Counted from the stretch's first letter, positions 1 to 46,767 are shown. The stretch is 64,000 bases of DNA from Candidatus Scatovivens sp. (GCA_045646345.1 JAZRKN010000003.1:10731-74730), one strand, 5' to 3'. A program made the numbers and translations. The notes: a model not told the origin generated them from the sequence alone.

Positions 1-617
1 TTGCTCTGATAATTAGGGACTGCAGCTATTCTATTCAAGCTAACAAATAATGAACTACTATATATTTCAATAGCTAAATCTAATTTTTGCTTTTCTTCTT
101 CAGGTAAACTGTTTTTGTATTGTTCGAAATTAGCTTTTAATTTAGTATACATTTCATTAGTGGAGTTAGTTGAAACAGACATATTTTTTTGAGAGTCTTT
201 TTTGTAATAAATTTCATCTATATGTTCTTCGTAATTATCACCATATTTATTTCTTAATTCTTCTACAGATTTTTCTAAAACATTAAAATTCTTTAGAATT
301 TCATGAGGGGCAGTTTGAAAATAAGGTTCGATTTTTTTTGTTGTAATATTTGCTCGAAATTCTACATTTTTTACAGGATAGCCTAATGCTTTTAATCTTG
401 AAGTCATAGAAATTATTTTTTGTAGCTGTTCGTTAATAGTTTTTATTTTTTTAATAAATGGTTTGCTTATCGGATAGCCGTCAGTAGAAGTTTCTACTTC
501 ACAAGAAAAAGTTCCATCTTCATTTATAATAATATCATTTTCTTCTAAATTATCATCAAAATATAATGTATTTAAATCTAATAAAGCTTTTCTTTTTTTA
601 TTATCTATTTCCTTCAT
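1..617 (-). CDS. Partial (3' end outside window) hypothetical protein, possibly a VIP2/C3-type ADP-ribosyltransferase
   Basis: Manually translated, not in the ORF track. ATG at 617 with AGGAGA RBS (621-628), open to the window edge: MKEIDNKKRKALL...KLDLAIEIYSSSLFVSLNRIAAVPNYQS. The last segment fits the AIxxY(T/S)xxx(Y/F)xx(I/L)N helix that opens VIP2-like ART domains. Confidence 0.5.
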   Translation of the reverse strand, partial: MKEIDNKKRKALLDLNTLYFDDNLEENDIIINEDGTFSCEVETSTDGYPISKPFIKKIKTINEQLQKIISMTSRLKALGYPVKNVEFRANITTKKIEPYFQTAPHEILKNFNVLEKSVEELRNKYGDNYEEHIDEIYYKKDSQKNMSVSTNSTNEMYTKLKANFEQYKNSLPEEEKQKLDLAIEIYSSSLFVSLNRIAAVPNYQS

Positions 618-668
618 TGTCTTCTCCTATTTATAAATCATGCTGTAATTAATTATTATTTTTTAATG

Positions 669-1307
669 CTACTTTATTTTTACTCCTATCAAGTATAATA
701 AATCTATTGCTTGAAATTGATTTATTAGGGCGCCTTTTATATCTTCAAGAGATATAGCTATTCCTTCTATGTTGCAGTCTGAAAGATCTATTCCTTTAAG
801 ACTTGTTTTAAAAAATTGAACTTGTGTTAAATTAGATTCTTTAAATATAATATTTTTTAATTTATTTTCTTGAAAAGAACTATTTTTTAAAATACTATTA
901 TTAAACAATATATTTTCTAAACTTGCCAAAGAAAAGTTGCTATAACATAAATTAGTTTCTAAATAACTAACGTTATACATTCGGCTTTCAATGAAATTAC
1001 ATCCAGTTAATTTACAATTATTAAATTTACATCTGATAAAGCAACTGTTTTCAAATGAAGTGTTCGAAAAATTACAATTATTGAATTCAATATCAGTAAA
1101 TATATTATTTTCTAATTTACTATTAGTAATCTCAACGTTGTTTAATATAGCTTTGTCTATTTTTATATCTATTATCTCTATATTTTCGTTTATATAATTT
1201 TCAATACAAACGCCAGTTAATTCTTCTATATTATTTATTTCATTAATTAAATTTTCTATTTTTCTTAAAGTACTATTTGACACTTTTTTCGGACTTAATA
1301 TGTTCAA
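669..1307 (-). CDS. Pentapeptide repeat protein (Qnr/MfpA-like fold)
   Basis: Continuous 5-residue periodicity (CNFSN TSFEN SCFIR CKFNN CKLTG CNFIE ... SNLTQ VQFFK TSLKG IDLSD). AGGAG RBS. Confidence 0.9.
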   Translation of the reverse strand: MNILSPKKVSNSTLRKIENLINEINNIEELTGVCIENYINENIEIIDIKIDKAILNNVEITNSKLENNIFTDIEFNNCNFSNTSFENSCFIRCKFNNCKLTGCNFIESRMYNVSYLETNLCYSNFSLASLENILFNNSILKNSSFQENKLKNIIFKESNLTQVQFFKTSLKGIDLSDCNIEGIAISLEDIKGALINQFQAIDLLYLIGVKIK

Positions 1308-1330
1308 TTCATTTCTCCTATAAAGTTAAC

Positions 1331-1804
1331 CTATTTTTCTTTATATATAATTTTTAATATAAATTCTTTTAGTTTGGTAAAAAAAGATTCTTTATATTTT
1401 ATTAAAGATGTATTTGCAATTTCTTGTGTATCTTGAATATTTTCTATATTTTCACTCGTATTATTCGTTTTTTTGAAAAGATCATCAGGATTATATTTTT
1501 TTCTTTTCTCTTCTTCTAAAGACAGAAAATCTTCTTTTTCTTTTTTCAAAATTCTATTTCGTTCTTCATCAGTAGCCCAATAATCTCTATATAATACAGC
1601 CAAAATTGTTTCTGTTTCGCTAAGCATAGTTAGTTCTTGGAAATCATGAAAATTTGTAATTGTATAATGATATTCTTTGTCTGAATTTAACTCCATATTT
1701 TCTATAATTTCAGTAGGAATCCTGTTGTAATCTTCTAACGGAATATGTTTTAGTATTTCTAATGCTTCAACATATGCTTTAGGCATTAATAATTTATTTA
1801 TCAT
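1331..1804 (-). CDS. Conserved hypothetical ~157 aa, paralogue of 45304..45771
   Basis: Likely start is ATG 1804, overlapping the upstream TGA (ATGA coupling), rather than 1843. Shares KA..E...LK.I..ED...IP....E....N..KEY...YW and C-terminal FTKL..FI with 45304..45771. Confidence 0.8.
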   Translation of the reverse strand: MINKLLMPKAYVEALEILKHIPLEDYNRIPTEIIENMELNSDKEYHYTITNFHDFQELTMLSETETILAVLYRDYWATDEERNRILKKEKEDFLSLEEEKRKKYNPDDLFKKTNNTSENIENIQDTQEIANTSLIKYKESFFTKLKEFILKIIYKEK

Positions 1805-44636: not shown

Positions 44637-45290
44637 TTATTTTATAACGATTATATTTTTTTCAAAAATTTTAATTATTTTTTCGTTCTTTACATTATAT
44701 TTATTTATAATTGTTTCCGTTACTGATGGTATTTTATTTGATAGTTCATAAAACTCTTCAAATTTGCTTTCATCAATAAAATATATTAATGTTCTTAGAT
44801 TTATGTTGTTGTATAGCTTTTCAATTTCTACATAAATATCCCTTAAATCCTGATCTAAAACATTTTCAGAACAAACTATATAAGCTAAAAAGTTAGTATC
44901 TTTATATTTATCTATAAAATCTAATACATCCATATTTTCATTTAATCGATTCAATCCCATTAATTCTGCTTTTACAACAACACTTTGAGTATATTTTTTA
45001 AATTGTTTTTTAATATTTTCTTGTATCTCTGTTGTAAGTTTTTTTATATAATAATCATCTTCTAATATCGTTTCTTCTTTATTTAATGTTGCAGTAAACA
45101 ATAAGCTCTCATCATTTTTGGGAAAACAAAATGTAGTTACTGTATCATCTGTACTTGTTCCAAATCTGTTCCCTATCAATTTCACACAAAATTCTTCATT
45201 ATATTTATCTTTTAATTTATCAGTAATAGACTTACTTATCTCACTATTACTAACACCATTTTCTACTATATCAAATATAGATACATCCAT
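44637..45290 (-). CDS. Hypothetical protein, candidate lipase immunity protein
   Basis: Directly upstream of the lipase. LKDKYNEEF.V...FPKND..L.F...DDY pattern recalls proteins encoded beside Firmicute lipase toxins. Confidence 0.5.
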   Translation of the reverse strand: MDVSIFDIVENGVSNSEISKSITDKLKDKYNEEFCVKLIGNRFGTSTDDTVTTFCFPKNDESLLFTATLNKEETILEDDYYIKKLTTEIQENIKKQFKKYTQSVVVKAELMGLNRLNENMDVLDFIDKYKDTNFLAYIVCSENVLDQDLRDIYVEIEKLYNNINLRTLIYFIDESKFEEFYELSNKIPSVTETIINKYNVKNEKIIKIFEKNIIVIK

Positions 45291-45303
45291 AATTTTACCT
45301 TTA

Positions 45304-45771
45304 TTAACTCCTTTTTCTTAATCCTTTTATAAAATTCAAAAGTTTTGTAAAAATAGTTTTTTTATTTTCAAATCTATCAATTTTTGCATTTTCAATAGGT
45401 AAATTTTTCTTTTCTGCATTATCTGTATTTTCATCAAAAAGATTATTTGATATTTTTCCAAATTGTATGCTTAATTGTTTTTGAAATTTTATTTCATTTT
45501 CATTCAATTTATCATAAAATTCTTTTTTATCATTTTCATTTTCACACCAATAGTTATAAGCAATATATAAAATTATCCCTTTAGCATCATCAGATAGTTC
45601 TAAATCCTTAAGAGCTTTGGTGTAATCTAAATTACATATATACTCTTTTTCTTCATTTTCGTTTAAAAATTCCAAAAAATTACTTGGTATTTTTTCCAGA
45701 TCCTCTTTTCTAATCCCTTTTAGATATACATTTACTTCTCTAATAGCTTTAGCATATTTTATTGAATTCAT
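45304..45771 (-). CDS. Conserved hypothetical 155 aa, paralogue of 1331..1804
   Basis: KAIREV..YLKGI.KEDLEKIP...E...N..KEY...YNYW...TIFTKLLNFI. AGGAG RBS. Confidence 0.8.
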   Translation of the reverse strand: MNSIKYAKAIREVNVYLKGIRKEDLEKIPSNFLEFLNENEEKEYICNLDYTKALKDLELSDDAKGIILYIAYNYWCENENDKKEFYDKLNENEIKFQKQLSIQFGKISNNLFDENTDNAEKKNLPIENAKIDRFENKKTIFTKLLNFIKGLRKRS

Positions 45772-45999
45772 TTTTTCTCCTCGTATAATAAATAAAGATT
45801 TTATCTTTTCTTTTGTATTTGCTAATCTACCTAAGTATAGATATATCTATTTTTTCATATACAGAATTTTAAGTCAATAAAAACAAAATTAAATTAATAT
45901 ATCATTTTATTTACATTTTCATCCCCCAAAAAATAAAAGATAAATATTAGTTTACCTCTAACATTTATCTTTTATAAAAAAACTTAAAATTTAATTATA

Positions 46000-46767
46000 T
46001 TATCTTTCTTCTAGTTCATCTACAGTTTTAAATAAATTTTTATAGCTTGTTTCACCAGGTTCTTGTGCTAATAAATGTTCTCTTGATGAAACATGATTTA
46101 CTTCGCAATATCTATTTTTAAATTTTTCTCCATCATTCAATAACATTCTCATATCATGTAAAAAGTTCTCGTATGCCTCATCAGCATAAAACATATTTTC
46201 TGGATTTTCTGTTCCATAACGTTTTCTTAATCTTTGAAGCGTAAACTCCAAAAATTCCTCTATTGATTTATCTGCCATTTTTCTTTTTCCTACAAAGAAA
46301 CTTCGTATAAATACCATTTCTATTGTTGTATTTCTATCTGCTGAAGATACCAATTTTCCATAATCACTTCTAGGCATATCTTCTAAAGATGAACTGTGGT
46401 CTTCTATTGCCTCTTTAATTATTTTTCTATCTTCTTCGTTAAAAAAATTAGCGAATCCTATGTTGTTTGCAAATCTTCTTGCAGCTATTTTGGCATGTTT
46501 TTCACCTGTTTCATGTTCTTCATATTTTCCAACGTCATGAGATGCTGCAATAGTATAAATCATATTTGGGTCTAATCCTAAATTCAATTCTTTATTTAAA
46601 ACAAATGATCTTCTAATAACCTCTAAAATATGTAAAATCCCATGTCCTTGATCATTTTTTGAATACTCTGGAAAAATTTTTTCTTCAACATATTTTTTTA
46701 ATTCTATACTTACTTCTTTTGTACACTCTTCATAATTTTTTATGCTACTATCTGCAAAATTTCCCAT
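46000..46767 (-). CDS. HD-domain phosphohydrolase (paralogue 2, with extra C-terminal tail)
   Basis: H...H, SHDVG, KH, IEDH, SSADR. Confidence 0.88.
   Translation of the reverse strand: MGNFADSSIKNYEECTKEVSIELKKYVEEKIFPEYSKNDQGHGILHILEVIRRSFVLNKELNLGLDPNMIYTIAASHDVGKYEEHETGEKHAKIAARRFANNIGFANFFNEEDRKIIKEAIEDHSSSLEDMPRSDYGKLVSSADRNTTIEMVFIRSFFVGKRKMADKSIEEFLEFTLQRLRKRYGTENPENMFYADEAYENFLHDMRMLLNDGEKFKNRYCEVNHVSSREHLLAQEPGETSYKNLFKTVDELEER

Follow-up and report, generated by a model that had tools for sequence, protein, structure and literature searches.

The window analysed here is a stretch of 64,000 nucleotides from Candidatus Scatovivens sp. (GCA_045646345.1), whose genome of 1.79 Mb (96.7% complete, 28% GC) likely belongs to the order TANB77. 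In a first-pass annotation several genes of this stretch were read as toxin-type enzymes that lack a Sec signal, reuse an amphipathic helix and a C-terminal tail, and would leave the cell by one dedicated pathway encoded elsewhere. Every open reading frame and peptide quoted there was found in the window at its coordinates. The genes and motifs, named hereafter by their first coordinate, are as follows.

1..617, minus strand: 5' part of the gene for a 437-aa signal-less protein with a C-terminal ADP-ribosyltransferase (ART)-like domain and a tail that is polar and acidic; candidate effector (feature match, tail score).
1331..1843, minus strand: famA member whose gene overlaps the end of 1801..2574; predicted to act as chaperone or immunity partner (no Pfam family).
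1801..2574, minus strand: candidate effector with a conserved 208-aa domain followed by a variable tail, of four module types among homologues (homologue comparison).
21581..23671, minus strand: candidate effector, HExxH zincin-like, whose amphipathic helix, FNDRIHV box and acidic end are retained among homologues (homologue alignment).
21665..21685, minus strand: FNDRIHV tail box of 21581, the tail motif of the first-pass annotation (kept in homologues).
21770..21811, minus strand: amphipathic helix of 21581, the helix motif of the first-pass annotation (matrix score 6.8; family-conserved).
39066..39752, minus strand: membrane-anchored orphan directly behind 39791; possible surface partner (hydropathy).
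39791..41605, minus strand: candidate effector with an unassigned alpha/beta N-domain with invariant YH...EG, an HD domain and a disordered tail with an FSERVVV box (homologues, model).
39896..39916, minus strand: FSERVVV tail box of 39791 (homologue alignment, tail pattern).
41620..43254, minus strand: BspA-type LRR protein (LRR_5) with an internal famA-like amphipathic helix and no acidic tail; weak candidate (domain, scores).
43279..44622, minus strand: signal-less lipase (Mbeg1-like/Lipase_3) with a tail at background; weak candidate (domain, tail score).
44637..45290, minus strand: orphan gene immediately upstream of that for the lipase; may be an immunity-like partner (no family match).
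45304..45771, minus strand: a second member of famA, lying 228 bp behind the HD gene (46000) (famA paralogue).
46000..46767, minus strand: HD-domain protein extended at its C-terminus by a stretch that ends in DELEER; modest candidate (tail score within the core's top 5%).
46769..47425, minus strand: HD paralogue, 39% identical to 46000 and without the tail; natural control (sequence comparison).

The lipase, LRR and HD domains assigned earlier to 43279, 41620 and 46000 were all identified as named. The first gene (G000:C3:10034-11347) extends beyond the window edge, and residues 170–400 of its 437-aa product match ADPrib_exo_Tox (PF03496) in language-model features (0.96, 172 of 256). The protein also shows VYRG/STS/EQRE, i.e., the R...STS...ExE motif of R-S-E ADP-ribosyltransferases, so that its description as ART-like finds support in motif and feature match but not in Pfam and PDB sequence searches, which returned no match. 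The conserved domain of 1801 is possibly a Tpt1/KptA-like ART, judging from a weak hit of residues 4–35 to RNA 2'-phosphotransferase (E = 0.5). A profile comparison between the 1801 and 39791 families gave no match. In 39791 we identified an HD domain at residues 371–496 that had been overlooked; its predicted model has a mean pLDDT of 82, a PDB sequence search returned weak HD matches only, and the N-domain of its family has an invariant His. The gene 21581 is inserted between housekeeping genes, and HExxH is kept in 16 of 16 sequences of its family among the matches listed, 21581 included. The absence of a Sec signal was borne out, with hydropathy over 12 residues peaking, within the first 45 aa, at no more than 0.9 in the candidates, except for 39791 (1.8); on the same measure the membrane-anchored neighbour 39066 reaches 3.6.

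The two small genes 1331 and 45304 are paralogues belonging to an unannotated family, which we refer to as famA, with 15 copies in this genome and 4974 clusters at 50% identity. Because they are paralogues, they share their helix by descent and are not enzymes, and the earlier reading of this helix as an effector signal is not supported for either, since they form a separate partner family. Members of famA combine a helical domain, a coiled helix and a C-terminal amphipathic helix; a predicted model (mean pLDDT 77) has structural matches to generic coiled coils only (best Z 4.2), which show neither kinship nor a new fold. In this genome and in others famA usually lies directly behind an unrelated orphan gene. 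Here, 12 of the 13 upstream genes are soluble orphans versus a background of 417/1197 (p = 3e-5), and in other genomes the upstream gene is on the same strand at 33 of 37 loci, at 28 of them within about -17 to +61 bp. Partners also include very long proteins, of 1445 and 1916 aa, and proteins with LRR, GH10, or mTERF domains. From this arrangement famA is predicted to be a chaperone or immunity partner of the protein encoded upstream. The family was found in 59 of 71 genomes of the order and in none of 192 genomes of other Clostridia or 399 genomes of other members of the phylum.

The helix had been proposed as common to the candidates, and we scored it with a matrix built from famA, using 175 core proteins of the genome as controls. 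Leave-one-out scores for famA range from 0.5 to 29 with a median of about 17, and the core maximum is 10.4. Scores are high relative to the core for 41620 (9.7, reached by 0.6% of core proteins) and 21581 (6.8, reached by 1.7%), whereas 1801 (-0.4) and 39791 (-2.7) are at background. Among homologues, the last 130 aa exceed the core maximum in 7/16 (21581), 12/24 (1801), and 5/64 (39791 family) sequences. Simple regular expressions for the helix gave just five C-terminal matches.

An F[ND]DRIxV box with an acidic end is common to unrelated families beyond what shuffled sequences give; the box pattern, which was written only after inspecting the proteins concerned, matches 17 of 69 homologue tails versus 3 of 1465 genome proteins, 21581 and 39791 being among the three. 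In both of these families the box is kept within variable linkers. A tail model trained on the 69 foreign homologue tails showed a modest enrichment, a score of 8 bits or more being reached by 10 of 417 soluble orphans and by none of the 175 core proteins (p = 0.04). By this model 21581 scores 13.9, the protein at the window edge 8.6 (exceeding all 175 core proteins), 39791 1.6 and 46000 0.1, and 41620 (-4.9), 43279 (-6.5), and 1801 (-17.5) are at background. Counting against an effector signal, the model also picks out proteins resembling mobile-element cargo in G040 and one protein in the control genome G167. In other genomes, genes upstream of famA have a median tail score of -3.0 versus -10.4 for the background (p = 7e-10), and genes downstream score -8.3, below those upstream (p = 0.02). 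Within the 1801 family a single conserved domain bears four tail types, and tails match another family better than any shuffled or core control in 11/19 (1801) and 7/16 (21581 family) cases but in only 2/58 for the 39791 family. The tail features exceed housekeeping controls, as had been anticipated, and their modules are swapped between unrelated families.

Other parts of the tail proposal did not hold. The acidic-then-Arg end occurs at 4/13 famA neighbours in the source genome versus 3/175 core proteins, yet it was not enriched at famA neighbours of relatives (1/33 vs. 11/808), and the end of 43279 is background. That the proteins share one motif set is contradicted by a profile of 24 partner tails, which performed no better than internal or reversed windows; on the same result we rejected a single alignable C-terminal targeting domain of the X-T4SS type (XVIPCD). 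An HMM of the tails of famA proteins hardly outperformed decoys (7 vs. 3 vs. 1.6 at 10 bits), and in an all-against-all BLAST of C-termini ordinary domain paralogy prevailed among the 70 of 222 matches inspected.

We chose 34 further candidates across the genome by eye. No Pfam family was matched by 28 of these 34 or by 23 of 33 famA neighbours elsewhere, and no toxin Pfam family was matched by any of the 67, so that the label "toxin-type" is not supported for most candidates. HExxH is present in 5/41 candidates versus 1/175 core proteins. The candidates are spread over 12 contigs with a GC content of 0.286 (vs. 0.292), and 2/41 lie within 10 kb of a tyrosine recombinase versus 99/1424 other genes. 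A reading as ICE/IME cargo was rejected because the candidates are not clustered at integrases and their GC is core-like.

A dedicated, non-mobile secretion apparatus had been postulated elsewhere in the genome, and a search for VirB4/VirD4 and Tad machinery found all of them: a type IV secretion system (T4SS) cassette, two VirD4-type genes, and a Tad locus, with VirB4 and VirD4 core to the order. The cassette (contig 14, C14:133442-155594) is chromosomal, lineage-wide, flanked by housekeeping genes and off mobile elements. It encodes seven VirB2-type pilins (PF18895 matches over the cut-off) and a VirB4 (PF19044, E = 8e-15, plus AAA_10). The genes adjoining virB4 probably encode VirB3, TrsD, and four VirB6 proteins; we read them from gene size, position, and membrane segments, which are kept in three families, and none has a Pfam match. 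Gene order in the cassette is identical across three families, with 3–4 pilin-like genes in the relatives G040 and G090. VirB4 is present in 145/151 genomes and 29/29 genera of the order at 61–80% identity over full-length matches; outside the order, matches are only 34–37% identical and occur in 4/399 genomes. The VirD4-type genes lie away from virB4 (C11:129170-131231 and C15:214730); the first is kept in 47/61 order genomes (E ≤ 1e-130) and the second in 41/41 searched. The Tad locus (C15:103137-117300) is complete and of the TANB77 type. EssC is absent from the genome, the sole PF01580 match being an 835-aa FtsK, and a T7SS (Esx/LXG) reading was rejected because this multi-FtsK ATPase was not found. 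The sampled ranges of famA and the T4SS coincide; this co-occurrence of T4SS, famA, and tails is that of a single order and so does not count as independent evidence.

As a separate observation, +1 frameshifts occur at CGG codons in this genome, and virD4 is among the affected genes: one of the two VirD4-type genes is split in this way, and assembly error was rejected as the cause of the junction. None of the RNA runs searched contained more than 9% of the sequence words of virD4. Tail arginines were likewise rejected as CGG artefacts, CGG accounting for 0/28 terminal Arg codons.

We consider it probable, though well short of assured, that the signal-less enzymes of the window are effectors exported by the T4SS, with swappable C-terminal signals and with famA as chaperone or immunity partner. 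For these candidates we infer export, toxicity, and target. The polar acidic tail, often following an amphipathic helix or a short box, would be read by one VirD4-type coupling protein, and famA would use its own amphipathic helix to hold its cognate partner at the membrane, either inactive or unfolded. Contact with another cell would be made by the Tad pilus together with the array of VirB2 pilins, and the protein would then cross the VirB4/VirB6 channel into that cell. By analogy with Patescibacteria, a second gut bacterium is the most likely target, a eukaryotic cell being a less likely one.

Orphan and famA could instead form cytoplasmic toxin–antitoxin or toxin–chaperone modules that serve defence or dormancy. 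FamA would then act as a promiscuous antitoxin, the tails would be degrons or chaperone-binding tags, and the T4SS would be unrelated. ART and HD domains are common in toxin–antitoxin systems (Panacea/PanA antitoxins, toxin–antitoxin–chaperone systems), and their presence here, the tight two-gene coupling to very diverse partners and the extreme diversification of famA all fit such modules. We nevertheless regard this as unlikely, given that many tail-bearing proteins (21581, 39791) have no famA neighbour, a single enzyme family carries interchanged tail modules, some partners are so large or carry domains such as GH10, and famA shares the range of the T4SS.

It is quite improbable that the core T4SS is a domesticated machine for DNA transfer or uptake with its Replic_Relax protein, the tail-bearing proteins being at most co-transferred helpers. 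The Replic_Relax (PF13814) gene is conserved (41% identity across families) and adjoins the second virD4 here or lies near the cassette (G090, G105), but its match spans only profile positions 1–107 of 191, and in three genomes the acidic pattern expected of a nuclease motif is missing from the region read as that motif. No PF03432 relaxase was found in this 96.7% complete genome, and DNA transfer leaves the lipase, zincin, and ART cargo unexplained. Although almost all known Gram-positive T4SS transfer DNA in the available part of one review (PMC12857230), Gram-positive conjugation systems do not typically have a VirB2 pilin array in the accessible text of another source (bioRxiv 10.1101/2025.01.22.634366).

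Equally, the motifs have little chance of being compositional noise, as K/E/F-rich orphans at 28% GC might produce, or leftovers of mobile-element cargo. Several of the original matches are indeed background and there is no common profile, but tail matches between families are better than those of composition-matched shuffles, the signal is replicated at 33 loci of other genomes, the box is kept inside variable linkers, and there is no clustering at integrases. Export through the Tad-like pilus machinery in place of the T4SS is very unlikely: the complete Tad locus and the Tad-like contact-killing machines known from predators are in its favour, but charged C-terminal tails and coupling proteins are features of T4SS, and the tail model also catches proteins resembling those of conjugative elements.

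Effector injection into neighbouring cells is a function rarely shown in Gram-positive bacteria, and dedicated effector translocation by their T4SS is a long-standing open question in the portion available of a 2025 review (PMC12857230). That question becomes testable with an order-wide, non-mobile T4SS for which there are candidate substrates, tails swapped in nature, and a family of partners. Our literature search on TANB77 secretion, effectors, reduced genomes, and symbiosis, on the T4SS of Saccharibacteria and on CGG frameshifting covered openly accessible articles; none of the titles listed describes this system, and TANB77 with epibiosis returned nothing. According to the text available of PMC11680825, TANB77 is a prevalent but uncultured group with a link to the response to immunotherapy, and the Tad cluster given there (proteins 927–938) has the same gene order and sizes as ours; the one mention of a "secretion system" in that text is found in the legend to a domain figure or table, and the VirB cassette, effectors, and famA are not described.

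Among known systems, the Streptococcus suis 89K island is likewise a Gram-positive VirB/VirD4 system for which protein export is reported, but as far as the accessible account goes it is a mobile island with one known substrate, whereas the present system is core to an order (PMC12857230). Legionella Dot/Icm likewise has a large, dispersed, mostly unannotated repertoire, a loose acidic C-terminal signal, and small chaperones. Its effectors carry an E-block signal. The chaperones include IcmS/IcmW (PMC12857230, available part). Dot/Icm is a type IVB diderm system with shared chaperones and a eukaryotic target, and here famA copies stand beside single partners. The bactericidal T4SS of Xanthomonas and Stenotrophomonas, with XVIPCD and immunity genes, likewise combines diverse enzymes, a C-terminal targeting region, and a small adjacent partner gene. 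The targeting region of XVIPCD effectors has an acidic tail. In the descriptions available, that system is diderm with one alignable XVIPCD, whereas here several tail modules are non-alignable and one partner family serves many unrelated proteins.

The closest layout is the MPF_FATA-derived T4SS of Patescibacteria (CPR), e.g., Ca. Southlakia epibionticum, which is mirrored here in the parts of the accounts available (bioRxiv 10.1101/2025.01.22.634366; PMC12857230). By those accounts, both lineages are monoderm with small genomes and have a lineage-wide chromosomal VirB4 adjoining VirB3/TrsD/VirB6 (here probable), a divergent VirB2 array, about two coupling proteins encoded apart from virB4, in most cases no relaxase (here PF03432 is absent and a partial PF13814 gene is nearby), and a separate pilus system; the S. 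epibionticum coupling protein is reported to be non-essential (bioRxiv 10.1101/2025.01.22.634366). TANB77 differs in being Clostridia with genomes of 1.0–2.1 Mb and several VirB6-like paralogues, in its Tad rather than T4aP pilus, and in the dispersed tail-bearing repertoire with famA partners, which those parts do not describe for CPR. Tentatively, and as a possibility that we would not yet favour, TANB77 may be a whole Clostridia order that has converged on the Patescibacteria lifestyle as contact-dependent parasites or predators of gut cells, a domesticated pilus-bearing T4SS injecting dozens of lineage-specific enzymes, each swappable-tailed and guarded by a new chaperone family of 5,000 clusters, with one coupling protein made via frameshifting at an unassigned CGG codon. 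Such a host-dependent lifestyle, if true, would explain the resistance of TANB77 to culture and would suggest co-culture for its isolation.

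The enzymatic proteins proposed by the first-pass annotation as substrates of a dedicated export pathway were re-examined together with the genome that encodes them; window ORFs are named by start coordinate. The quoted ORFs and peptides are present as described, the N-termini of the candidates are not signal-like, in agreement with the claimed lack of Sec signals, and the lipase, LRR and HD assignments are upheld. An HD domain is additionally present in 39791, whose N-terminal alpha/beta domain has a confident structure prediction, and the HExxH motif of 21581 is conserved in its family. 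The ART assignment is mixed for <1..617, an ORF that crosses the window edge and has a full length of 437 aa: motif and language-model features favor it, whereas HMM searches do not. ORF 1801 gave only a hint of a Tpt1-type ART fold (E=0.5). Two other window genes deserve mention.

15444..16787 (-): orphan flanked by secA and the release-factor gene listed next; it has a repeat weakly resembling the RNA polymerase alpha-CTD, and its tail score is at background
14206..15339 (-): gene that we take to be release-factor-2-like, a single continuous ORF from which the usual programmed frameshift is apparently absent

The amphipathic helix said to be shared among these proteins is strong in famA, an unannotated small-protein family to which 1331 and 45304 belong. 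Its score is borderline for 41620 and 21581 and at background for 1801 and 39791, although some homologs of the latter two do carry a famA-type helix. The second proposed motif, a C-terminal box (F[ND]DRIxV) with an acidic end, is clear in 21581, 39791, and <1..617 but weak in 43279 and 46000, and the box is common to the unrelated 21581 and 39791 families. Among homologs of 21581 (16, among the matches listed), 39791 (64), and 1801 (24) the folded domains are kept and the last 40–110 residues vary. The 1801 family alone uses four tail modules. One is the helix type noticed originally; a second has its match in the tail of a famA neighbor that is unrelated and lies in a different genome, G033 (score 83 vs. 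47 or less for controls). Tails scored above every shuffled and core control in 11/19 members of the 1801 family, 7/16 of the 21581 family, and 2/58 of the 39791 family. With 69 foreign tails as its training set, a position model picked 10 of the 417 soluble orphans in the genome analyzed (G000) and none of its 175 housekeeping (core) proteins, compared with 4/483 soluble proteins of relatives and 1/179 in out-of-order controls. Because tails are swapped and no one profile covering all of them was found, the common element is, at the level of sequence, a set of short, exchangeable, polar, acidic modules rather than one motif.

The window spans C3:10731-74730 of G000. This genome (1.79 Mb, 28% GC, completeness 96.7%) encodes a VirB4 that is 91–94% identical in named relatives including Ca. 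Scatovivens and UBA7001, both of which we presume to belong to TANB77. In a layout comparison made without alignment, the gene order and sizes of its Tad locus follow those of TANB77 proteins 927–938 in Table 1 of PMC11680825. Given this layout and these relatives, the genome likely belongs to TANB77, a clostridial gut order that has not been cultured. Within the order, famA was detected in 59 of 71 genomes; it was found in 0/192 other Clostridia and in 0/399 other phylum members, the latter in a search of lower sensitivity for which only 9/29 own-genome candidates were scored. Members are 130–200 aa long, and clustering of the protein library at 50% identity yields 4974 famA clusters. Of the copies in G000, 14 are full and one is partial. 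FamA has no Pfam family, and a fold search gave no informative match. Some homologs (P0001–P0004) are tandem duplications or carry an added N-terminal domain, presumably vWA-like. A same-strand upstream neighbor lies within 250 bp of 13/15 copies, and 12 of these 13 are soluble orphans, a class that also holds housekeeping genes outside the coverage of partial relative sequences, so that comparisons with it are conservative. In other genomes 33/37 famA loci have such a neighbor, 28 of them within about −17 to +61 bp; these neighbors are mostly unrelated to each other (seven related pairs), and their tail scores exceed background and those of downstream genes, with p-values inflated by kinship among genomes.

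Most putative cargo is unannotated: 28 of 34 further G000 candidates chosen by eye and 23 of 33 famA neighbors elsewhere have no Pfam family. The remaining by-eye candidates are an LRR protein, a helicase, BadF-type and PfkB-type kinases, and two weak matches, and among the annotated neighbors are three housekeeping genes alongside LRR, GH10, mTERF, AAA, and DUF4116 proteins. HExxH occurs in 5/41 candidates (one of the five selected for that motif) versus 1/175 core proteins. "Effector" fits these proteins better than "toxin". The BadF/BcrAD-type (C14:94852-96003) and PfkB-type (C15:164834-165868) kinases have polar tails ending EDR/NDR, suggesting that metabolic enzymes may also be exported. 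In genome G062, the protein next to one famA copy (L238:2003-3091, −) contains an mTERF match at E=1e-38 together with UBA-like repeats. Such a domain is of eukaryote type and could hint at a eukaryotic target. Separately, four G000 proteins of 309–1334 aa (C9:30790, C15:153728, C1:260936, C1:151276) have an unannotated C-terminal domain of ~75 aa in common.

A search of G000 for EssC found none. Seven VirB2-type pilins are encoded in a cassette at C14:133442-155594, together with a gene of VirB3 size, one resembling TrsD, VirB4, and four VirB6-like genes, and a glucosaminidase/G5 gene follows; Pfam support is limited to the pilins, VirB4, and glucosaminidase. Gene order is identical in three other genomes (G040, G090, G105). 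Two VirD4-type coupling-protein genes lie away from the cassette among housekeeping genes. VirB4 is present in 145/151 order genomes, the second VirD4 in 41/41, and the first in 47/61 under a strict cut that missed all five genomes of one family; outside the order, VirB4 matches at 34–37% identity occur in 4/399 genomes. In family f2 (G007:C27, G012:C1, G034:C151, G002:C91, G022:C89) the second virD4 is in two tandem copies and the first has no strict match. A second VirB4-like match at E≤1e-20 is seen in many order genomes but not in G000. Upstream of the pilin array, a small protein (C14:129096-129581) resembles, as we read its motif, a Panacea/DUF4065 antitoxin.

Just before Walker A, an in-frame CGG codon coincides with a +1 frameshift that splits the first virD4 in five of the eight loci inspected, a finding that bears on the export model. 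The same junction, without an indel, appears in contigs from four studies, and assembly error was therefore rejected. Comparable splits were collected as follows.

Split by +1 frameshift exactly at in-frame CGG: G000 C11:129670 (virD4), C1:31847, C1:157797, C6:24210, C15:219162
Further loci with a +1 split at in-frame CGG: L117, L118, L120, L123
Additional candidate CGG-split genes: C1:206137, C4:16653, C14:45742, C15:118492, C15:270021, C16:5032

CGG accounts for 4 of 90,582 codons in G000 core genes (0 in G090, 0 in G105, and 3 codons in G040; 15/11,892 in control genome G167). It is at the junction in 4/4 other homology-supported frameshifts, the split pattern occurs at 9/64 in-frame CGG codons versus 21/1698 control codons, and the +1 frame carries a glycine codon at the junctions in the first two lines above. 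No tRNA with a CCG anticodon was called; tRNA-Ala and tRNA-Ile are missing from the called set as well. Because CGG is nearly absent, the indel-free junction recurs, and other frameshifts also lie at CGG, the first virD4 is probably not a dead gene but one whose full product would be made by recoding. The splits as a whole resemble a general +1 (four-base) decoding of CGG, which would be an unassigned codon. Passages of PMC8629427 report unassigned-like CGG in other Clostridia and describe no such frameshifting.

From the observed genes, conservation, pairing, and tail swapping we infer binding, export, activity, and target. Coupling proteins would read the tails, famA would chaperone or neutralize the neighboring protein, pili would make contact with a recipient cell, and the T4SS would deliver the enzyme, probably into another bacterium; we hold this to be the probable explanation. 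Cytoplasmic toxin–antitoxin or chaperone modules are an unlikely one. Beside the second virD4 or the cassette lies a conserved gene that partially matches Replic_Relax, and the T4SS may therefore transfer DNA; a DNA-transfer machine is nevertheless slightly less credible still, on a par with noise or mobile remnants. Export through Tad is the least plausible.

Export by the T4SS, the explanation favored here, would have precedents. The cassette layout is that reported for Patescibacteria (bioRxiv 10.1101/2025.01.22.634366), and the predicted working resembles that T4SS, the likeness being one of layout. The candidates fall outside the definitions of XVIPCD (Xanthomonas-type) effectors and of the T7SS. 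A literature search covering openly available main texts found no paper on a TANB77 T4SS, famA, or such tails. In its signal logic the predicted system resembles Legionella or Xanthomonas effector export.
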